From assembly GCA_024405635.1 (NCBI GenBank), contig JAKSOL010000003.1, positions 32,001 through 96,000 of the forward strand: a stretch of DNA of 64,000 nt, in the 5' to 3' direction. Position numbers and translations under genes: made by a program. This DNA is from Salinivirgaceae bacterium (GTDB lineage Bacteria > Bacteroidota > Bacteroidia > Bacteroidales > SZUA-534). Position 1 is the first letter of the stretch; each line of letters begins with the position of its first letter. Positions 21,405-29,530 of this stretch are shown here, piece after piece. The notes beneath the pieces were generated by a model. That model searched no databases. It saw only the letters and a list, made by a program, of their open reading frames with translations, and was not told the origin of the DNA.

Positions 21405-22724
21405 ATGCAAGATATTAAGTCGGAATACCTTCATCCTGAATTTGAAACGCTGGATAGGGAACAGATTGAGGCTTTGCAAGTAAAACGGTTGCAAGATACC
21501 GTGCGCCACTGCATGAACTCGGAGTTTTACAAAACAAAGTTTAACGAGTTGGGCATCAGTCCCGAAGACATTAAATCGACAGCCGACATACGCAAACTGC
21601 CGTTTACCACAAAACAAGATTTGCGCGATACTTATCCGTTTGGCATGGCAAGTGTGCCACTTGAAAAATGTGTGCGCCTTCACTCATCAAGCGGAACCAC
21701 AGGCAACCCAACTGTTATTTTGCATACCCAAAAAGACATTGACGAATGGGCAAACGCAGTGGCTCGTTGCCTTTGGATGGTTGGCTTGCGCCCAAGCGAT
21801 GTGTTTCAAAACTCATCGGGATACGGAATGTTTACTGGTGGATTAGGTTTTCAGTATGGAGCCGAACGTTTGGGAATGCTAACAGTGCCGGCAGCTGCAG
21901 GTAATACTCTTCGCCAAATAAAATTCATAAAAGATTTTGGAACAACTGCCATTCATGCTGTGCCATCGTACGTAACTCGTATTAAGGAAGTTATGGACCA
22001 ACAAGGAGTTGACCCACGCAAAGACACAAAACTTAAAGTGCTTGCTATTGGTGCTGAACCTCACTCTGAAGAGCAACGCAAACGCATCGAAGAAATGCTT
22101 GGCGTTAAAGCCTACAACAGCTTTGGCATGAGCGAAATGTGTGGCCCTGGTGTGGCGTTTGAATGCAAAGAGCAAAACGGACTTCACTTTTGGGAAGACT
22201 ACTACATTGTTGAAATTGTTGACCCAGAAACACTTGAGCCTGTGCCCGATGGCGAAATAGGCGAACTTGTGCTTACTACAATCAACCGCGAGGCTATGCC
22301 GCTTATACGTTACAGAACTCGCGACCTTACACGTGTGCTTGGTCGAACTTGCCCATGCGGTCGTAATCACATTAGACTCGACCGTATGAAAGGTCGCTCC
22401 GACGATATGATGGTGCTTAGAGGCGTTAACATTTTCCCAATACAAATTGAGAAAATACTCATGCAATTTAAAGAACTGTTAACCAACTATCTTATTACAC
22501 TTACCACCGATAACGACAACGACAACATGACAGTGGAAGTTGAGGTTGACGACTTGTATGCAAACGACAATTTGCACTTGCAACAACTAACAAAAGAAAT
22601 AATCCGCCAGCTAAAAGATGAAATATTGCTTACGCCTATCGTGAAACTTGTAGCTCGCGGTACCTTGCCACAAACCGATGGCAAAGCAGTGCGCGTAAAC
22701 GACTTGCGAAAAGTGTATAGTTAA
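21405..22724 (+). CDS. paaK: Phenylacetate-CoA ligase
   Basis: HSSSGTTG, GAEP, GMSE, RYRTRD, RGVNIFP, GKAVRV. Confidence 0.92.
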   Translation: MQDIKSEYLHPEFETLDREQIEALQVKRLQDTVRHCMNSEFYKTKFNELGISPEDIKSTADIRKLPFTTKQDLRDTYPFGMASVPLEKCVRLHSSSGTTGNPTVILHTQKDIDEWANAVARCLWMVGLRPSDVFQNSSGYGMFTGGLGFQYGAERLGMLTVPAAAGNTLRQIKFIKDFGTTAIHAVPSYVTRIKEVMDQQGVDPRKDTKLKVLAIGAEPHSEEQRKRIEEMLGVKAYNSFGMSEMCGPGVAFECKEQNGLHFWEDYYIVEIVDPETLEPVPDGEIGELVLTTINREAMPLIRYRTRDLTRVLGRTCPCGRNHIRLDRMKGRSDDMMVLRGVNIFPIQIEKILMQFKELLTNYLITLTTDNDNDNMTVEVEVDDLYANDNLHLQQLTKEIIRQLKDEILLTPIVKLVARGTLPQTDGKAVRVNDLRKVYS

Positions 22725-22736
22725 AAACGCGAGTGC
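22472..22736 (+). repeat. 265-bp direct repeat, copy 1 (paaK 3' end)
   Basis: Matches 26986-27250 with 3 substitutions seen near the 3' end. Confidence 0.95.
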
Positions 22737-22769
22737 GCGGTTTAGGCTAAACTTGCCAACAATTGTGGC

Positions 22770-22915
22770 GAGCGAGCGCAGCAACATGGAACTCAGTTAC
22801 AATATGCGAATCCGACGACCCGGAATCGAGGAACTAAACCCGTTCATTGACCGCAGCGACCCGTTTTCGCTCTCGTACGGAAACTCTCATCTCGACGTAG
22901 AAAAAACCAACAACC
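22770..22915 (+). pseudogene. Fragment of a TonB-dependent receptor beta-barrel gene
   Basis: LSYNMRIRRPGIEELNPFIDRSDPFSLSYGNSHLDVEKTN resembles the Bacteroidetes OMP beta-barrel RP...LNP...GNP.L motif. No N- or C-terminal context. Confidence 0.65.
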
Positions 22916-23299
22916 GCAACCAAAAGTCAAAAAAAGTGAGTTTTGGTTGCGGTTCTACTATTATCATAAATGTTCAGTAATCCATTGCCGTACTTTTGCG
23001 TAGCAACCCTCCACCACGTAATGATTCAAAACTTCCAGTTCTCCTAACGTGAAATTGATATTTTGGTCAAGTTCCTTTTTTAAAATGCCTAACACCGAGG
23101 TCATCTTTCCATTATTGGAGGTCTTTACGCATTCTCTCAGGTTCTCTTTCGCATTTATAAGATAACGGAGGCTCAATGAAATCATTCAGCGACAAGTTAT
23201 TTGTTGTTTTCAATAAATTCGGAAAGTTCACAAAGACAAAGGTTCATAGTGTGGGCAAAAACATCAAATTCCCTTTCACACGATTTTTTAGGCTTTTTC

Positions 23300-24379
23300 T
23301 CATCCTCCCCTATAAGCCGACGGCGACTGCCCCTTGCATTTCCGGAAAAACTTCGCGAAAACCATCTGCGACGAGAATCCCAACACATTTGCAATCTCCT
23401 GAATCGACATCGTGGTGGTGTTCAACAAAACCTCCGACTCCCTCAGAATCTGAGAATCAATCACTTGCTTGGGCGTACGACCGCTTATCGACTTGGTAAT
23501 CTGCGACAAGTAGCGCGTGGTGATGGCAAGGGCGTCAGCATAAAACTGAACATCGTGACTCTTGGTGTAATTATCGGCCACCTGCGAGAGGAACTTATTA
23601 TACAAATCATTGGGCCTGAGATTGTTCCTCCTGTCAAACGACTCAGCATAAACCACCTGACGATGCAGATAATCGTGGGCATTGCCTACCGCCAACTCCA
23701 CATCGTCGCCCATAGCCAGACGTGTTGCAATGGCCGACGACAACGCGCCTCCCACGCCGTGACGCTGCCAGCCCGACACATTCACCGACGAGAAAAACCT
23801 CTGGGAACCATCGCCATAGAGCAACGCGTGAATCCTGCCCTCCGAGAACTTGCCGCCACGGAGCAACACCGACTCAGCACCCATATCCACAAACCGCCTC
23901 GACGCCATTACCATATCCTCGTCGGTGCTGATACTGCGCCCAAGAATAATCTCGGCGTCGGTGCACTTCAGCATAAGAATCGTCGTAATAGGCAAAATAT
24001 TGTTGCACAGGGATTTAATGGAGTCATTTGACATAAGACATCCACCCCTGGACGACAAAACTCCAGGCGAGCACACAATCCTTCCGCATCCCACAATCTC
24101 GTTCCTAAGCAAGCGGATAGCCTTGGGCGAATCTATCATACCGATTTTCACCGCCTTGGGCCTTGAATCCTGATACACGGCCCTTACCTGACCAACCACG
24201 ATATCGTCGGGCAAGGTGTGGACACACTGAATGCCGTCCTCGTTCTGCACGGCGATAGACGTTACAGCCGTTACCGCGTGACCGCCAAGATCCCTAACGG
24301 TCTTTATATCAGCCTGAATGCCAGAATGTCCCGTGCTGTCGGAACCATTAACGCATAATATCGAAACAGGATTATTCAT
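23300..24379 (-). CDS. ThiD/PdxK-like ribokinase-fold domain fused to an AraC HTH; putative B6-responsive regulator
   Basis: N-terminal GSDSTGHSGIQADIKT, AVKIGM and HGVGGALSSAIA; C-terminal AraC-type VQFYADALAITTRYLSQI...SIQEIANVLGFSSQMVFAKFFRKCKGQSPSAYR. Confidence 0.88.
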   Translation of the reverse strand: MNNPVSILCVNGSDSTGHSGIQADIKTVRDLGGHAVTAVTSIAVQNEDGIQCVHTLPDDIVVGQVRAVYQDSRPKAVKIGMIDSPKAIRLLRNEIVGCGRIVCSPGVLSSRGGCLMSNDSIKSLCNNILPITTILMLKCTDAEIILGRSISTDEDMVMASRRFVDMGAESVLLRGGKFSEGRIHALLYGDGSQRFFSSVNVSGWQRHGVGGALSSAIATRLAMGDDVELAVGNAHDYLHRQVVYAESFDRRNNLRPNDLYNKFLSQVADNYTKSHDVQFYADALAITTRYLSQITKSISGRTPKQVIDSQILRESEVLLNTTTMSIQEIANVLGFSSQMVFAKFFRKCKGQSPSAYRGG

Positions 24380-24529
24380 AGTGTCACAAAGATAGAAACA
24401 AAGTCAAAGCCTCCCAAATCCGAATTCCGAAAACGACAAATTTGTCTGTTTGTACGACAAGTATTCCCATTTAGGAGAGAAATCGTCAGCCCCCAAAAAA
24501 TAAAACTGACCTTTGCACCGAAAAAAATG

Positions 24530-24610
24530 GAACACAGATAACACGGATCAAGCGGATTTGCGCTGATATTATGACCGTGACAATCCGCCTAATCTGCGTA
24601 ATCCGCGTTC
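24530..24610. repeat. Palindromic element built from 9-nt units in the pdxS leader
   Basis: gaacacagat-aacacggat-caagcggatt ... aatccgcct-aatctgcgt-aatccgcgttc. Confidence 0.7.
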
Positions 24611-24638
24611 TATCAAACCACATAAACACGAAAAAGAA

Positions 24639-25514
24639 ATGGCAGAAAACAGAGCAGAACTTAACCGCAACCTTGCACAGATGCTCAAGGGCGGTGTGAT
24701 AATGGACGTAACAACACCCGAGCAGGCACGCATAGCCGAGGAGGCCGGAGCCTGCGCCGTAATGGCATTGGAGCGCATCCCGGCCGACATCCGCGCAGTA
24801 GGCGGAGTATCGAGAATGAGCGACCCAAAGATGATAAAAGGCATTCAGGAGGCCGTCACAATCCCCGTAATGGCAAAGTGCAGAATAGGCCATTTCGCAG
24901 AGGCTCAGATACTTGAGGCTATCGAGATCGACTACATCGATGAGAGCGAGGTACTATCGCCCGCCGACGACATCTACCACATCAACAAGCGCGATTTCAA
25001 GGTTCCATTCGTATGCGGCGCCAAGGACCTCGGCGAGGCACTCCGACGCATCAACGAGGGCGCCACAATGATACGCACCAAGGGCGAGCCCGGCACCGGC
25101 GACATCATTCAGGCCGTACGCCATATGAGGATGATGCAGAGCGAGATACGCCGACTCACATCAATGAGCGAGGACGAACTCTACGAGGCCGCCAAGCAAC
25201 TCCGCGTGCCATACGAGTTGGTGCAGTACGTTCACCAGAACGGCAAACTCCCCGTAGTGAACTTCGCAGCCGGCGGAGTGGCCACCCCAGCCGACGCCTC
25301 GCTTATGATGCAACTCGGTGCTGACGGCGTATTCGTAGGCTCGGGAATCTTCAAGAGCGGCGACCCCGTAAAACGTGCCCAGGCCATCGTGAAAGCCGTC
25401 ACCAACTACAACAATCCCAAGATAATCGCAGAACTCAGCGAAGACCTCGGCGAGGCAATGGTAGGCATCAACGAGAGCGAAATCCAATTGCTAATGGCAG
25501 AGAGAGGAAAGTAA
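24639..25514 (+). CDS. pdxS: Pyridoxal 5'-phosphate synthase lyase subunit
   Basis: [42 protein letters not shown]. Confidence 0.97.
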
Positions 25515-26083
25515 TGAGCATCGCAATTCTTGCCCTTCAAGGAGCATTCGAGGAGCACGCCCAGATGCTCCAAAAAATCAGCGTGGATAGCGTGTTTATC
25601 CGCAATCTTGCTGATTGGCAGGCATATATATCGGCAACCGACGGCAACAGAGCCCTCATAATCCCCGGCGGAGAGAGCACCGCGATGATGCGTATCATCA
25701 GGGACGAGAACCTCTTTGAGCCAATCCGTGAGGCCATCATCAGCGGACTTCCCGTGTTCGGTACCTGTGCGGGAATGATAATGCTCGACGACCTCCACCT
25801 CAACGTGATGGACATCCACGCCAAACGCAACGCCTACGGCCGTCAGTTGGGAAGTTTCAGCACCGACCACGAGGTGGAAGGCATCGGCAGAATCCCTATG
25901 ACCTTCATCCGCGCGCCATACATCGAGAGCATCGGCCCTGATGCCAAAGTACTCTCCGTCTTAGACGGAAACATAATCTGCGCCCAGCAAGGCAAAATGC
26001 TCGTCTGCTCCTTCCACCCCGAACTCACCCAAGACGAAAGAATGCACAGGTATTTTGTCGAGATGGTAAAAAAATCTGAGTAA
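25514..26083 (+). CDS. pdxT: PLP synthase glutaminase subunit
   Basis: LALQGAF, PGGEST, GTCAG, RNAYGRQ, FIRAP, FHPEL. Confidence 0.96.
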   Translation: MSIAILALQGAFEEHAQMLQKISVDSVFIRNLADWQAYISATDGNRALIIPGGESTAMMRIIRDENLFEPIREAIISGLPVFGTCAGMIMLDDLHLNVMDIHAKRNAYGRQLGSFSTDHEVEGIGRIPMTFIRAPYIESIGPDAKVLSVLDGNIICAQQGKMLVCSFHPELTQDERMHRYFVEMVKKSE

Positions 26084-26136
26084 AAATTCTACTTTTAGTG
26101 AATTTGTAATATATATATGCCACAAATTAACCGGCA

Positions 26137-26456
26137 ATGAAAATATACTTCGAAAAGGATTATTTGAGCGAACTATATCAAAATGGTAAATGTAACGACA
26201 AAAACATCGTTACCAACCTCAGATAATCAACAAATATAAACGTGTTATAGATTTAATGATATCACAGCCCAACGTATTGTCGTTAACCCAATATGGCTCA
26301 CTGCATTACGAAAAACTCAGTGGCGACAAAAACGGTCTTTCTTCTGTAAGAGTCAACGACCAATACAGAATTGAATTCACGGAAAAAACCGAAGAAGGGC
26401 AAGACATCGCAACTATCTGCAACATCGAAGAATTGTCGAATCACTACAAAAAATAG
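26137..26456 (+). pseudogene. higB: HigB (RelE/ParE-fold) toxin with a 1-nt frameshift
   Basis: MKIYFEKDYLSELYQNGKCNDK stops at 26224-26226. Adding one A to the A5 run (26200-26204) gives KHRYQPQIINKY...LHYEKLSGD...SVRVNDQYRIEF. Confidence 0.8.
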
Positions 26457-26461
26457 AAACT

Positions 26462-26785
26462 ATGGCACATATATTAGCAAACAATATTACACCTTTCGCT
26501 CCCACACACCCAGGTGAGATCTTGAAAGACGAAATAGAATTCCGCGGAATCTCTCAGAAAGACCTCGTAGAGAATATGAACGTTTCATATTCATTTCTCA
26601 ACGAGGTTCTTAACGGGAAACGTCCACTCAACACCGAACTCGCTATGATGATAGAGGTTGCATTAGGCATATCGGCAGAGCCTCTCCTGAATATGCAGAT
26701 GCGCTACAATATGCAAGTTGCAAAGAAAGACACAAGTTTTACGGAAAAACTTAGCAAGATTAGGAAAATGGTAGCGGTTTGGTAG
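26462..26785 (+). CDS. higA: HigA family antitoxin (XRE HTH)
   Basis: PTHPGEILKDEI, LNEVLNGKRPL, LLNMQ..Y. Confidence 0.92.
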   Translation: MAHILANNITPFAPTHPGEILKDEIEFRGISQKDLVENMNVSYSFLNEVLNGKRPLNTELAMMIEVALGISAEPLLNMQMRYNMQVAKKDTSFTEKLSKIRKMVAVW

Positions 26786-26865
26786 AGATGACCAAATCCC
26801 CAGATAAATCGGCAAAAAACTGCCATTGTGGATTGTGGGAATTGGGTATTGAGAAAATCCTTCAT

Positions 26866-26973
26866 ACCTATCGGAATGTCACATTTTTTGCCACATTCCG
26901 ATAGGTTCTACCAAAATCGCTTATTGCAGTAACCGATTTTTATAGGATTTCGGTTAGTGGAGTAAGCGATTTT
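26866..26973. repeat. Two tandem inverted repeats at the island right end
   Basis: acctatcggaatgt/acattccgataggt (26866-26906) and aaaatcgctta..taaccga/tcggtta..taagcgatttt (26913-26973). Confidence 0.7.
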
Positions 26974-26985
26974 TTCATAAAAAAG

Positions 26986-27250
26986 AGAACTGTTAACCAA
27001 CTATCTTATTACACTTACCACCGATAACGACAACGACAACATGACAGTGGAAGTTGAGGTTGACGACTTGTATGCAAACGACAATTTGCACTTGCAACAA
27101 CTAACAAAAGAAATAATCCGCCAGCTAAAAGATGAAATATTGCTTACGCCTATCGTGAAACTTGTAGCTCGCGGTACCTTGCCACAAACCGAAGGCAAAG
27201 CAGTGCGCGTAAACGACTTGCGAAAAGTGTATAATTAAATACGCGAGTGC
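26986..27250 (+). repeat. 265-bp direct repeat, copy 2 (orphan paaK 3' fragment)
   Basis: Encodes the paaK C-terminus with D>E and S>N changes relative to copy 1. Confidence 0.95.
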
Positions 27251-27334
27251 AGGTTAGTTTAATATTGCCCAAATTGTGGTGTGCCGCCGAATTTGATTTC
27301 GGCCTGTGCCCAACGCGCAACTTTTGTTTTAAAG

Positions 27335-29530
27335 TTATTGTCTTTGCAGTCCGTTTCTAATAAAACGTTCTTTGTTACCAGCAAAGAGCACTCGGTACGA
27401 GTCGGTGTTTACAATTTCAAGTATTTCGCCATTGCCAAAATACGCATGCCAAACTTTGTCGCCAACCTCAAAACCATCGCTTGCGGGGGCAACGTTGTTA
27501 AATCCAGCAGCCACAAGGTTGAGTGTGCTTTGCCACAATGATTGGTCCATTTTTCCTTCGGTAACAAACAACTCGCGGTTTATTTCGGTTAAGAATCGCG
27601 AAGGGTATTTTTTCGATTTGTTGCTCAAGTTATATCCTTCCGATTCGGTTAAGAATAGGCATTTTTCGGCACGAGTAACCGCTACAAACATCAGTCGGCG
27701 TTCCTCTTCAAGTCCAGCTTGCTTGCGCTCTTGCACCGATTTTAGGCTTGGAAACATGCCCTCGCTCAATCCAACTACAAACACAAACGGAAACTCAAGT
27801 CCTTTTGATTGGTGAATGGTCATTAGTTTGATGCAGCTTTGATTGGCTGTGCTTCGGTCGAGGTTGGTGTAAAGGGCAATGTCTTGCAGGTACGAGTTCA
27901 GCGTCACGTCGTCTTCTTTGTGGTCTTGCTCGTAAAGTTTAATTGACGACATCAGCTCCTCAAGGTTTTCAAGGCGTTCGTCGTCTTTGTCTTCGCGCAA
28001 CATTTGCTTGTAGCCTGTGTTTAGCAAAATGTGATCTAAAAGGTCAGATATGCTCAATTTGCTTGCAAGTGCCTGATATTCTTCAATTTTGTTTACAAAA
28101 TCGATGGCGTTTATTTTGCAAAGTTCATCGGTTTCAAGGTTGTTTTTCAAGGCCTGAAAGTACGAGCAGTTGTCTCGTTCGGCAATGGCTTTTACTTTGG
28201 CTACAAACACTTTGCCCAGCTTTCGCGATGGTAGGTTTATTACACGCAGAAACGACAAGTCGTCTTCGGTGGCAACCAAACGCAAGTAGCTTAGTGCGTC
28301 TTTAATTTCTTTGCGGTCAAAGAAACGGGTTCCGCCCCAAATAATGTATGGCAGCTGCAGTTTCATTAGTTCTTGCTCAACACTGCGCGACATGTAGCTT
28401 GCGCGGTATAAAATGGCAAAATCCGATGGCTTGGCATTTGCCTTTTCGATGCCTGCTTTTATTTGGTTTACAACCCATTGCGCTTCGTCAACTTCGCTGT
28501 CGCCGTGGTAGTGAACAATGTCGTACGATTGCGATTTGTTGTGGGCAAACAGGTCCTTTTTTATTCGGTTTTGGTTGTGGCAAATAAGCGAGTTGGCAAT
28601 GTTTAAAATATCTTGGGTCGATCGGTAGTTCTCTTCGAGTTTTAGGTCTAAATCGTAGTTAAAATTTAGAAATAACTCGGGTTTTGAGCCGCGCCATTCG
28701 TAAATGGCTTGGTCGGGGTCGCCAACTACAAAAATGTTGTTGTGTTTTTTGCCTATGGTTTCAATCAAATCCCAGTTGCAGCCATTGCAGTCTTGGGCCT
28801 CGTCAACCATCATGTAGTTTATTTTGTCTTGCCAAAAATTGCACACATCGTTGTACTTGTGGAGCAGATAAAGGGCAAAATAGTCGATGTCGGTAAAGTC
28901 GAGAGCGAGCAGTTTTAGTTGCTTGTGCATGAAAAGGTAGTGAGGATCGGCCATTTCTTGCTCGTTGAGCTCGCAGTTGGGCAGCATGTAACGCTCAATG
29001 TAGGCGCAGTTGTCCATCGATTTTAACACTTCCATTTCGTCAAGAAAATTGCGAATGCTCACTTTGTCTTTTTTGCGGCCACATTGCTCAAGAACTTCTT
29101 TTGCTAAAGCTTTTTGGTCTTCGTCGTCAAGAATGGTGAACGATTTTGGGTATCCCATGCGGAAAATATCTTGACGCAAAATTTTGACACAAAGGCTCGA
29201 TAGTGTGCAAATCATGTCGTTTAGGTGACCTGAGTTTACGTACCGAGCAATTCGCGACCTCATTTCTTGCGCAGCTTTGTTGGTAAAGGTAACGCACAAA
29301 ATGTTGGCGGCATCAATGCCAACGGTGTTTACCAAAAAGGCAAACCTTGAAGCTAGTGTTTTTGTTTTTCCCGAACCTGCACCGGCGGCAACTCTAATTC
29401 GGCCATCAATAGCGGTAACTGCCTCGCGCTGGCTAGGGTTGAGGCCTGCAAATGGGTCGTTGTTAATGCTTAGTGTGTGCGGCTTGTTGCTGCTATTTAT
29501 TTGTGGTATGTGCAGTTTGTTTGTGTCCAT
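27335..29530 (-). CDS. UvrD/PcrA-family SF1 DNA helicase
   Basis: AGAGSGKT, VTFTNKAA, VDEAQD, VGDPDQAIY.WRG, NYRST, MTIHQSKGLEF, EERRLMFVAVTRA. Confidence 0.95.
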   Translation of the reverse strand: MDTNKLHIPQINSSNKPHTLSINNDPFAGLNPSQREAVTAIDGRIRVAAGAGSGKTKTLASRFAFLVNTVGIDAANILCVTFTNKAAQEMRSRIARYVNSGHLNDMICTLSSLCVKILRQDIFRMGYPKSFTILDDEDQKALAKEVLEQCGRKKDKVSIRNFLDEMEVLKSMDNCAYIERYMLPNCELNEQEMADPHYLFMHKQLKLLALDFTDIDYFALYLLHKYNDVCNFWQDKINYMMVDEAQDCNGCNWDLIETIGKKHNNIFVVGDPDQAIYEWRGSKPELFLNFNYDLDLKLEENYRSTQDILNIANSLICHNQNRIKKDLFAHNKSQSYDIVHYHGDSEVDEAQWVVNQIKAGIEKANAKPSDFAILYRASYMSRSVEQELMKLQLPYIIWGGTRFFDRKEIKDALSYLRLVATEDDLSFLRVINLPSRKLGKVFVAKVKAIAERDNCSYFQALKNNLETDELCKINAIDFVNKIEEYQALASKLSISDLLDHILLNTGYKQMLREDKDDERLENLEELMSSIKLYEQDHKEDDVTLNSYLQDIALYTNLDRSTANQSCIKLMTIHQSKGLEFPFVFVVGLSEGMFPSLKSVQERKQAGLEEERRLMFVAVTRAEKCLFLTESEGYNLSNKSKKYPSRFLTEINRELFVTEGKMDQSLWQSTLNLVAAGFNNVAPASDGFEVGDKVWHAYFGNGEILEIVNTDSYRVLFAGNKERFIRNGLQRQ

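Follow-up and report, generated by a model that had tools for sequence, protein, structure and literature searches.

A ThiD-derived pseudokinase fused to an AraC-type DNA-binding domain, a probable regulator of vitamin B6 synthesis in Bacteroidales

The named regulators of vitamin B6 synthesis are all of the MocR type and come mostly from Proteobacteria, Firmicutes and Actinobacteria, as far as the available parts of PMC5320631 and PMC9997740 go. Those parts also bear out what an earlier reading of the present locus, made by a model from the letters alone (the sequence-only reading), had stated, namely that the known pdxST regulator PdxR is a MocR/GntR-type protein and so belongs to a different family. 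According to the accessible portions of PMC5320631, the PdxR gene is divergent from pdxST, sites in the common spacer serve both promoters, the apo form is an activator, and PLP is an anti-activator. PdxR (MocR/GabR-type; Corynebacterium, Listeria, Streptococcus and Bacillus clausii, with PdxW and PdxQ alongside) combines a GntR winged helix with an aminotransferase-like domain that carries PLP on a lysine.

Enzyme-derived sensors also occur in other cofactor regulators. In archaeal ThiR (ThiN domain), RbkR, NrtR (Nudix), NadR, BirA and the ROK repressors (sugar-kinase fold), a DNA-binding domain is joined to the fold of a biosynthetic or salvage enzyme, in many cases an inactive one, which serves as sensor of the pathway's metabolite. 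The AraC/XylS family usually bears a cupin, DJ-1/GATase1-like or periplasmic-binding-protein-like domain at the N-terminus. Here we analysed a window of 64,000 nucleotides from a Salinivirgaceae bacterium in which a single ORF of 359 residues joins a ThiD-like domain to an AraC double helix-turn-helix (HTH) and stands head-to-head with pdxS-pdxT across a 259-nt spacer (Table 1), a fusion and a layout that the sequence-only reading had described correctly. The best explanation overall, which we consider probable, is an AraC regulator of B6 biosynthesis with a ThiD pseudokinase as sensor, working by end-product feedback; that the protein regulates B6 synthesis genes in one way or another we hold with high confidence. 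The sequence-only reading had come to a similar view, a dead kinase that serves as a B6-vitamer sensor and activates de novo PLP synthesis, and the computations bear out each part of it that they reach. Like PdxR, it is encoded divergently from pdxST, with predicted sites for both promoters in the spacer between them, and its sensor goes back to an enzyme that acts in B6-related chemistry. It differs from PdxR in pairing an AraC double HTH with a ThiD-fold pseudokinase, in occurring in Bacteroidales, and in a predicted regulon that also reaches pdxJ. Compared with ThiR, RbkR, NrtR, NadR, BirA and the ROK repressors, it differs in fold, DNA-binding domain, vitamin and phylum. Our literature search found no description of the ThiD pseudokinase-AraC combination, although supplementary candidate lists could hold unnamed examples, and no dedicated regulator of B6 synthesis for Bacteroidales.

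Table 1 Features of the regulator-pdxST locus; positions are those of the window.
Feature	Position	Strand	Details
Direct repeat, copy 1	22472..22736	+	3' end of AMP-ligase gene 21405-22724; left border of inserted segment
Regulator gene (ThiD-like/AraC)	23300..24379	-	ATG-started ORF, 359 aa; stop codon 23300-23302; Pfam, AlphaFold2 model
AraC/XylS-type DNA-binding domain, residues 255-359	23303..23617	-	Seven helices, two HTH; HTH_18, PDB matches, model helices
Pseudokinase sensor/dimerisation domain, residues 1-248	23636..24379	-	Ribokinase-like ThiD fold, catalytic and ATP-side residues replaced; Pfam, alignments, Foldseek
Predicted -7 box of regulator, TATCTTTG	24387..24394	-	Ends 7 nt before ATG; composite match C23:56432(-); same geometry in other loci
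Predicted operator, regulator's own promoter, TTTCGGAAT	24420..24435	-	GGAA core starts 34 nt upstream of -7 box
Predicted operator, pdxS promoter, CCATTTAGGAG	24463..24478	+	Site start 41 nt, GGAG core 34 nt upstream of -7-like box; anchored stack of loci, composite match C23:56466
Predicted -7-like box of pdxS promoter, GACCTTTG	24508..24515	+	One mismatch to TAnnTTTG
pdxS, PLP synthase lyase subunit	24639..25514	+	NF003215, 512.8 bits against cut-off 395
pdxT, PLP synthase glutaminase subunit	25514..26083	+	TIGR03800, 202.9 bits against cut-off 105.55
Direct repeat, copy 2	26986..27250	+	Orphan 3' fragment of AMP-ligase gene; right border of inserted segment

Both domains are well defined. 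Pfam places Phos_pyr_kin on residues 14-248 (E 2.3e-52, profile 1-238 of 246) and HTH_18 on residues 280-357 (E 1e-17, 64.6 bits against a cut-off of 33.6, profile 1-78 of 80), with HTH_AraC also matched (35.9 bits, cut-off 26.6); neither a GntR winged helix nor an aminotransferase-like PLP domain was matched in Pfam and NCBIfam at E up to 0.01. The AlphaFold2 model has a mean pLDDT of 91.2, with helices over residues 255-358 and a low-confidence linker at residues 246-252. Its top Foldseek matches are ThiD/HMPP kinases (8g1h, E 1.5e-22, TM 0.88 on target), and the fold agrees with that of ThiD (COG0351, TIGR00097) at a TM of 0.87-0.90 on target, with 30-34% identity to 8g1h, 4jjp_A, 7r8y_A and 1ub0. 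The C-terminal domain matches the DNA-binding domains of AraC and AdpA in the PDB. The protein has the general plan of the AraC/XylS family, a C-terminal seven-helix double HTH behind an N-terminal sensor/dimerisation domain, and departs from it in that the N-terminal domain is a ribokinase-like pseudokinase.

The association with pdxST extends well beyond this host. In a first set of 80 Bacteroidales loci with flanks of up to 6 kb, pdxS lies in the flanks of 58, divergent in 29 and co-directional in 29; the neighbour clusters found widely are those of pdxS (53 loci) and pdxT (49 loci) alone, the next one occurring in 11 loci, and no thiamine gene is a conserved neighbour in this set. A second set of 63 Bacteroidales loci has pdxS linkage in 46. 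The conserved linkage that the sequence-only reading put up for checking is thus found in two gene arrangements. Among the linked members of the second set are 21 shortened proteins of fewer than 330 residues that lack the ATP-binding half, including those of the cultured Prevotella amnii DSM 23384 and P. bivia DSM 20514. Conversely, 22 of the 80 loci have no pdxS in the flanks. In 10 genomes with an unlinked regulator, pdxJ is present in five and pdxS occurs elsewhere in four, and neither gene was seen in one (G412). The host itself carries a second, shortened family member that adjoins a GH2 beta-galactosidase gene and has no B6 gene nearby. A quick tree groups the window's protein with 27 other members (SH-aLRT 95; 28 of the 79 fusions used) and nests the family among Bacteroidota ThiDs. 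When genomes were sampled evenly across the order, a match at E up to 1e-60 came from 4 of 401, host included, a count that is no estimate of prevalence because this threshold misses the more distant clade of the second set. The window's protein has the features on which we base the proposed family (a ThiD-derived domain without the catalytic Cys, an AraC fusion, and genomic and operator linkage to pdxST) and is best read as a member of a widespread Bacteroidales family of B6-synthesis regulators with a pseudokinase sensor. Names were available from the sources for 3 of the 120 family clusters listed, and all three read hydroxymethylpyrimidine/phosphomethylpyrimidine kinase, the kind of mislabelling that had been predicted for automated annotation.

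We also determined candidate operators at both promoters of the spacer. The consensus -7 box of Bacteroidetes promoters is TAnnTTTG. With site patterns that were written after sight of the sequences, a match that begins 40-42 nt ahead of a -7-like box accompanies 32 of the 61 such boxes preceding pdxS, 8 of the 58 preceding the regulator gene, and 6 of 1175 elsewhere. In a test on promoters that had no part in defining the site, 8 of the 9 pdxJ or pdxS promoters from genomes with an unlinked regulator have two GGAA-like cores 21 bp apart at the same distance from the box, whereas the host genome has 9 such cases among 5698 boxes. The predicted half-sites are direct repeats beside a promoter, as in the AraC/XylS family, and araI provides a precedent for the 21-bp spacing. 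Since the same operator precedes pdxJ and unlinked pdxS, the regulon appears to follow function, namely B6 synthesis, across two non-homologous pathways. The pdxS operator of the window is a degenerate copy of the family consensus, with a GGAG core and a weak distal half-site, and it fails the two-core rule, as do all 46 linked loci of the second set under the strict form; a relaxed, post hoc pattern is found in 12 of 28 non-redundant loci of that set. At the regulator promoter, the predicted operator stands where related divergent loci have a AAGTATTCCGA site, 88 nt away from their pdxS -7 box. The regulator mRNA would be near-leaderless, because its predicted -7 box ends so close to the ATG. 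Pattern scans of the host genome gave no further credible operator: of the 30 and 4 matches, those at the pdxS and regulator promoters alone are meaningful, and the 9 boxes that pass the two-core rule and the 54 tandem-core matches all look random. An Rfam search over positions 22400-27400 returned one chance-level match (E 0.79) and no known riboswitch or leader that would account for the long pdxS leader.

From these sites we infer DNA binding by the regulator, and from structure prediction that it is a dimer. In the proposed mechanism, a dimer held together by its pseudokinase domains would occupy the operators at pdxS-pdxT and at its own divergent promoter, with the AraC domain reading a GGAA-core operator that starts 41 nt before the -7 box and lies directly upstream of the -33 region. 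The ligand-free dimer would recruit RNA polymerase to pdxST and to its own gene, and PLP or another B6 vitamer, bound in the former substrate/phosphate pocket, would weaken this activation and so provide PdxR-like end-product feedback. The apo-activator logic is borrowed from PdxR, as given in the accessible part of PMC5320631.

As to the sign of control, we favour an activator over a repressor with only modest confidence. Repression of the same genes, with a B6 vitamer as co-repressor, is a substantial minority possibility; it concerns only the sign, and its weight is not to be added to those of the alternatives below. Co-repression is a common form of feedback, and the regulator could use the operator at its promoter to repress its own gene, as is reported for PdxR (PMC5320631, in the part available). 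Against this, both promoters have the conserved site, in all arrangements, on the upstream side of the -33 region rather than over the -33 element, the -7 element or the start, and the -7-like box of the host pdxS promoter is imperfect. An operator abutting the -33 region from upstream is the usual placement for activators, and an imperfect -7 box is expected of an activator-dependent promoter.

With respect to the effector, we lean towards a B6 vitamer and suspect PLP in particular. By their PDB titles, structures of kinases from this superfamily contain B6 vitamers: PLP, bound non-covalently, in a ThiD (4ywr), and pyridoxal, joined to a Lys, in a PdxK (5zwb). It is unlikely that the pocket of such a B6-synthesis regulator instead senses the ancestral ligand, HMP or HMP-P, or a pathway substrate (ribose 5-phosphate, glyceraldehyde 3-phosphate or DXP), although the position of the domain among ThiDs agrees with this, and the ThiD-type Gln45 and Asn46 (27 and 26 of 29 canonical ThiDs, respectively) are kept and leave room for an HMP-like ligand. 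However, the lack of a conserved thiamine neighbour in the first set speaks against this, as do the regulated genes, which make PLP by two unrelated routes. The pdxST and pdxJ routes have glyceraldehyde 3-phosphate as their sole common substrate, which favours their common product, PLP, as the signal. The precedent of PdxR is likewise one of end-product sensing, in the available part of PMC5320631.

The homodimer model reached an ipSAE of 0.71, against 0.01 for the best control, with interface residues 13-71; of proteins solved as pairs, 20 of 30 reached the mark used, as did 1 of 23 solved as single chains. Three runs had at least 73% of contacts in common, with partner pLDDT of at least 80. 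The predictor may have learnt this pairing beforehand, since ThiD dimers may already be among the solved structures. The interface covers the conserved GSDS..G.QAD and QN motifs, and the conservation of the substrate side (residues 13-48) may therefore reflect dimerisation only. Such an arrangement would fit a ThiD-like part that only holds the dimer together and binds no small molecule, control being exerted by protein amount or by another factor, and the shortened members, which keep just the N-terminal half, would fit it as well. We nevertheless regard it as quite improbable. Lys138, Cys139, Arg174, His207, Gly208 and His235, on the ATP side, are nearly invariant in the full-length clade and line the former active site in alignments to ThiD structures, and a mere scaffold would not need these replacement residues to be so constant.

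The motifs that the sequence-only reading had quoted (HGVGG, CSPG, MLKCTDAE and GSDS.G.SGIQAD) are all present in the protein, as RHGVGG at residues 206-211, VCSPG at 102-106, MLKCTDAE at 136-143 and GSDSTGHSGIQAD at 12-24. Its interpretation of them needed two adjustments. The TPN..E motif is indeed lost, but in a different register: canonical T-P-N-L-P-E-A-E aligns with M136-L-K138-C-T-D141-A-E, so that the invariant Asn is replaced by Lys and the invariant Glu by Asp. Most substrate-side motifs are retained as claimed, but retention is incomplete, with canonical G18 and A19 replaced by His and Ser. The N-terminal motifs GSD, QAD, QN and KIGM are common to the regulator, ThiD/HMP-P kinase and ThiD2-type PdxK; beyond them it differs from these enzymes in its catalytic and ATP-side replacements, sub-cut-off scores and fused DNA-binding domain, and in that some relatives lack the ATP half.

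Eight near-invariant ThiD positions are replaced, as judged against 29 canonical ThiDs and the 120 family members listed. These are Asp of DPV (29/29 ThiDs; S104 here; in the family 113 Ser, 6 Asp and 1 Ala), Asn of TPN (29/29; K138; 114 Lys, 6 Arg), Glu of TPN..E (29/29; D141), Lys of KGGH (28/29; R174; Arg in all 120), His of KGGH (28/29; K177), Thr of GTGC (28/29; V209; 115 Val, 5 Ile), the catalytic Cys of GTGC (29/29; G211; 117 Gly, 3 Ser, no Cys) and Lys of AK.Y (27/29; H235; His in all 120). What was computed here for the Cys and the other ThiD residues is their invariance, as distinct from their catalytic roles. Seven of the eight replacement residues are themselves conserved across the 120 members, which indicates a new constraint rather than decay; the check for consistent loss across homologues thus came out in favour of the sequence-only reading. 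The domain is best read as derived from ThiD without the residues for phosphoryl transfer and for ATP/Mg, with its fold and dimer interface preserved along with most of the substrate pocket, and on these alignments we are fairly confident that the regulator has no kinase activity. A bifunctional protein, in which an active HMP or pyridoxal kinase doubles as regulator much as BirA and NadR are each an enzyme and a repressor in one, could draw on the complete ribokinase-like fold, an HGVGG loop rich in glycine and perhaps still able to form an anion hole, the retained Glu143 and the conservative swap at Asp141, but it is very improbable given the eight replacements, the absence of the Cys from all 120 members, the 21 pdxST-linked relatives without an ATP-binding half, scores below the cut-offs of TIGR00097, the ThiD equivalog (171.7 bits, cut-off 204.95), and NF009077, the ThiD2-type pyridoxal kinase PdxK (86.3 bits, cut-off 385), and a host that already has its own ThiD (311.2 bits in TIGR00097, all motifs present) and a pyridoxamine kinase gene (289.6 bits, cut-off 231).

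The regulator, pdxS and pdxT form a GC-rich acquired cassette between direct repeats of 265 nt, whose copies are 99% identical and differ at 3 positions. In run X1, read depth was 42.9 over the repeat piece and 25.8 over the flanks, and in run X2 a loose end at 22736 continues with the sequence after repeat copy 2. The AMP-ligase loci of seven relatives (44-73% identity), in which an empty site was sought, have no synteny to the host locus. The pdxS of the window is the only one found in the host genome, and no de novo PLP synthase genes other than pdxST turned up there. The stretch, or part of it, was present in 20 runs of 10 studies, all from animal gut or faeces by record. Two metatranscriptome runs gave gene-sized contigs, such as X4 23268-24431, which spans the regulator ORF; contigs of this kind cannot prove transcription, starts or strand.

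A joint reading of these results goes further and is offered tentatively, being doubtful as a whole. In this Bacteroidales-wide family, a ThiD pseudokinase would have become a PLP receptor, the retained glycine loop HGVGG taking up the phosphate of the vitamer and the new invariant Lys138/Cys139 pair binding its aldehyde, as a Schiff base or thiohemiacetal. The receptor would drive the AraC domain, one operator code would extend over pdxST and pdxJ, and several lineages would since have reduced the sensor to its N-terminal half. In the host, the regulator, operators and pdxST would make up a self-regulated prototrophy cassette that replaces the pdxJ route kept by relatives.

The family would fill a gap by providing a B6 regulator for Bacteroidales, an order that is dominant among the gut, oral and vaginal communities of humans and animals. 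It would also correct a systematic annotation error in which a regulator passes for a salvage kinase of thiamine or B6, an error that distorts predictions of vitamin auxotrophy from genomes. The series from a full fold with a dead site to a half fold would offer a natural enzyme-to-sensor transition, and the cultured carriers P. bivia DSM 20514 and P. amnii DSM 23384 make the family directly testable.

The 359-aa protein encoded opposite pdxS-pdxT has two Pfam domains, a Phos_pyr_kin domain that is nearly complete (E 2.3e-52, residues 14-248) and, at residues 280-357, an AraC-type HTH_18 domain that is complete (E 1e-17), in agreement with the sequence-only reading, which had described a single ORF joining a ThiD/PdxK-like domain to an AraC double HTH. 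The head-to-head arrangement described there also holds, with the ORF and pdxS-pdxT diverging across a 259-nt spacer and both pdx genes passing their NCBIfam cut-offs. The AlphaFold2 model, for which 120 relatives served as input, is confident (mean pLDDT 91.2) and consists of a ribokinase-like domain, a low-confidence linker (residues 246-252), and a seven-helix AraC domain. A structure search with this model returned ThiD/HMPP kinases as the closest solved folds, followed by ThiD-type and PdxK/PdxY pyridoxal kinases. Neither the HMP-P kinase profile (171.7 against 204.95) nor the ThiD-type PdxK profile (86.3 against 385) scores the protein above its curated cut-off. The host genome encodes a separate ThiD with every motif present (311.2 bits) and also a pyridoxamine kinase (289.6 against a cut-off of 231).

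Features of the regulator-pdxST segment (positions in the window)
Feature	Position	Strand	Basis or remarks
Regulator ORF	23300..24379	minus	ATG-started, 359 aa
Regulator promoter -7 box TATCTTTG	24394-24387	minus	predicted
Regulator promoter predicted operator TTTCGGAAT	from 24432 downwards	minus	pattern match
pdxS promoter predicted operator CCATTTAGGAG	24467-24477	plus	spacer stack and pattern match
pdxS promoter -7-like box GACCTTTG	24508-24515	plus	predicted
Inverted GCGGATT	24552-24558		pdxS leader
Three 9-nt tandem repeats AATCCGCCT, AATCTGCGT, AATCCGCGT	24582-24608		pdxS leader
pdxS	24639-25514	divergent from regulator ORF	above NCBIfam equivalog cut-off
pdxT	25514-26083	divergent from regulator ORF	above NCBIfam equivalog cut-off
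HigB-like toxin gene	26138-26456		apparently interrupted; short frame 26138 to ~26227, second frame 26256-26456
HigA-like gene	26462-26785		HTH_3, intact; after the HigB-like frames
Direct repeats, 265 nt	22472-22736 and 26986-27250		3 differences; bracket the 4.25-kb segment

The canonical ThiD motif positions have roles in catalysis and in ATP/Mg binding in the ThiD and PdxK structure literature, and here we tested their invariance. The protein was aligned with 29 canonical ThiDs from loci of several phyla, including the host's own, and the identical columns were tallied in 120 family members. The Asp of DPV, the Asn of TPN, the Glu three residues after that Asn, and the Cys of GTGC are present in 29/29 canonical ThiDs; in the family these positions read S113 D6 A1, K114 R6, D110 E10, and G117 S3, respectively. 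Three further residues are found in 28/29 ThiDs each: the Lys of KGGH (family R120), the His of KGGH (T92 V7 K5 I3, the other 13 not itemised), and the Thr of GTGC (V115 I5). The Lys of AK.Y, found in 27/29, is His in all 120 members. The proposed check of homologs for consistent loss of catalytic residues therefore came out in favor of that loss, with the catalytic Cys in 0/120. Because seven of the eight replacements are conserved, and C139, R174, H207, G208, and H235 are invariant, the former active site appears to be under new constraint rather than in decay. The altered motifs had been read correctly, except for a shifted register: TPNLPEAE pairs with MLKCTDAE, hence the changes of Asn to Lys and Glu to Asp. 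The substrate side, said to be retained, is so only in part, as Q45 and N46 are still ThiD-like but G18 and A19 are replaced by His and Ser. Mislabeling as a kinase was also rightly foreseen: just 3 of the 120 clusters listed carry a name from their source, in every case that of a kinase.

The same architecture occurs in at least 120 clusters at 90% identity; among the best 150 matches when all 1.84 billion representatives clustered at 50% identity were scanned, about 20 clusters were full-length, with several shorter two-piece forms. A first set consisted of 80 loci at 41-76% identity, drawn from named genome records and all Bacteroidales-type (Prevotella, Bacteroidaceae, and Paludibacteraceae, from rumen, horse, and other guts). 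The flanks contained pdxS at 58/80 loci, 29 of them head-to-head as in the window (gaps of 116-654 nt) and 29 with pdxS downstream on the same strand (gap of at most 35 nt at six); eight of the 22 loci lacking pdxS had complete 6-kb flanks on both sides. When all neighbors were clustered, only pdxS (53 loci) and pdxT (49) were widely shared, the next cluster being found at 11 loci.

The host encodes a second family member outside the window, a 304-aa paralog (G000:C23:113272-114186, equivalent to L162:8273-9187, minus strand) that is 30% identical to the window's protein; its ThiD fold is limited to the N-terminal half (Pfam positions 1-123 of 246) and is joined to an AraC domain. Its gene is divergent from a GH2 beta-galactosidase gene. 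Prevotella relatives of the paralog lie directly upstream of pdxS-pdxT, and its closest relatives, labelled Paludibacteraceae, are unlinked and occur in genomes with pdxJ. With the paralog as query, 79 loci were found, of which 63 (L172-L233, L237) form a second set, the others being AraC-part matches or unused. Linkage of homologs to pdxST, the other proposed check, is seen here as in the first set: pdxS-pdxT is immediately downstream at 46/63 loci, including those of Prevotella amnii DSM 23384, P. bivia DSM 20514, and Prevotella sp. BV3P1. These 46 loci encode 25 proteins of at least 330 aa and 21 truncated forms, which are without about 50-65 ATP-side residues and read HGFSN, HGYSN, or HGRCN at the HGTGC position. 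The truncated forms are the strongest argument against a bifunctional enzyme that is kinase and regulator at once, since they have no ATP half and keep the linkage; judged by its sequence, such a protein cannot be a kinase. In a quick maximum-likelihood tree of 28 of the 79 set-1 fusions, the 29 ThiDs, and the paralog, with pyridoxamine kinase as outgroup, all fusions lie to one side of a branch supported at SH-aLRT 95 and are nested among ThiDs of Bacteroidota; the truncated paralog is basal, on a long branch.

Divergent spacers were stacked ungapped, anchored on the Bacteroidetes-type -7 box (consensus TAnnTTTG) of the pdxS promoter, revealing ~100 nt of conserved architecture. A predicted operator, TTTnCC(A/T)(A/T)AT.GGAA, begins 41 nt before this box, and a second predicted site, AAGTATTCCGA, lies 88 nt before it. 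On the opposite strand AAGTATTCCGA is the same motif and precedes the -7 box of the regulator's promoter by 41 nt, so that the spacer comprises a pair of operator-promoter units in mirror image. In the window, both of these promoters have the start of the core 34 nt upstream of the box. The same predicted site is found at the pdxS promoter of co-directional loci, and upstream of the regulator gene in tight operons. The regulator -7 box lies close to the start codon: it ends 7 nt before the ATG in the window and at many other loci, and the distance is 5-7 nt across the window and at least eight tight-operon loci (box start at -12), which suggests that the regulator mRNA is leaderless. At ~120 nt, the pdxS leader is unusually long, its counterparts at related loci measuring 30-60 nt, and it gave no match in Rfam.

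Of the -7-like boxes, 32/61 upstream of pdxS and 8/58 upstream of the regulator gene have the site pattern 40-42 nt ahead of them, compared to 6/1175 elsewhere in the same loci; at 36/58 linked loci, at least one of the two promoters carries it. Since these patterns were devised after the sequences had been inspected, a test on other promoters was sought. Where the regulator is unlinked (ten genomes searched), pdxS is located elsewhere in four genomes, pdxJ is present and pdxS absent in five, and neither gene was found in one. Each of the five pdxJ promoters has a direct repeat of the type TTnCGGAA(C/T)A in two copies 21 bp apart, and the copy nearer the -7 box is as far from it as the operator elsewhere. 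A fixed rule, which asks for a pair of GGAA-like cores spaced 20-22 bp with the nearer core 31-34 nt before the box, is satisfied by 8/9 promoters of unlinked pdxS or pdxJ versus 9/5698 boxes in the host genome. Paludibacteraceae-type genomes with an unlinked truncated paralog have pdxJ in 5/5 cases and pdxS in 0/5; upstream of pdxJ, GGAAC repeats 21 bp apart are seen by eye in 4/5, and two pass the rule. At one locus (L251, G424:C21), the region upstream of pdxJ has four tandem (T/A)(C/A)GGAAC units 21-23 bp apart, where two occur elsewhere. The strict rule finds 0/46 linked loci of the second set, where boxes read TT.CTTTG and just one half-site is clear; a relaxed, post hoc pattern finds 12/28 non-redundant loci versus 0.0026 expected per 200 nt. 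The predicted regulon tracks B6 synthesis over two non-homologous pathways, pdxST and pdxJ, a pattern difficult to account for if the protein were not a regulator of B6 synthesis.

Residues, linkage, and operators together point to a B6-synthesis regulator with a pseudokinase sensor; the mechanism beyond this is inferred. The regulator would work as a dimer paired through the pseudokinase domain. A two-copy model reached an ipSAE of 0.71 (control, 0.01), a mark reached by 20/30 proteins solved as pairs and 1/23 solved as single chains, with at least 73% of contacts common between runs and pLDDT of at least 80. The predicted interface (residues 13-71) falls in the half kept by the truncated forms, which fits a dimer, though the result may reflect model memory, given that the solved structures may already include ThiD dimers. 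As the interface includes the conserved substrate-side motifs, these might be kept for pairing alone. An economical guess for the ligand is PLP, the common product: kinases of the same superfamily have PLP or pyridoxal bound (4ywr, 5zwb, per PDB titles), and the new, nearly invariant Lys138/Cys139 pair would suit its aldehyde and the kept glycine loop its phosphate. At both promoters the site lies immediately upstream of the -33 region, a position that suggests an activator. PMC5320631 describes PdxR, a MocR-type regulator whose apo form activates and for which PLP is an anti-activator, and we adopt this logic as our model, considering it somewhat favored.

Reuse of an enzyme fold as the sensor of a cofactor regulator is a well-known principle; the combination of fold, DNA-binding family, vitamin, and phylum appears to be new. 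Full-text literature searches turned up neither a ThiD-AraC protein nor an AraC-type B6 regulator. Passages of PMC6593275, PMC9997740, and PMC5320631 name only MocR-type regulators (PdxR, PdxW, PdxQ, PdxR2), consistent with the earlier description of PdxR, and the word AraC occurs 0 times in each paper.

A 4.25-kb segment containing the regulator gene, pdxS, and pdxT is bounded by direct repeats that are the duplicated 3' end of an AMP-ligase gene (21405-22724). Weaker similarity runs ~30 nt beyond both repeat copies. The G+C content is 0.52 for the regulator, 0.57 for pdxS, and 0.53 for pdxT versus 0.403 for the genome, in which just 0.7% of 1-kb windows reach 0.50. The remaining segment has host-like G+C and carries the HigA-like gene and the interrupted HigB-like gene, whose second frame matches only the C-terminal part of PF05015. 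No integrase or transposase was found inside or beside the segment, and relatives, whose AMP-ligase loci are not syntenic, yielded no empty site. A PdxA-family gene remains in the host (C2:23267-24130), perhaps as a remnant of a DXP-dependent route that was lost, or as a PdxA paralog serving a different function. In the host genome (99.78% complete), we found no pdxJ and no pdxS besides the island copy; pdxJ is present in the five genomes carrying the closest relatives of the truncated paralog. On these grounds, the cassette looks like an acquired, self-regulated PLP-synthesis module that replaced the pdxJ route.
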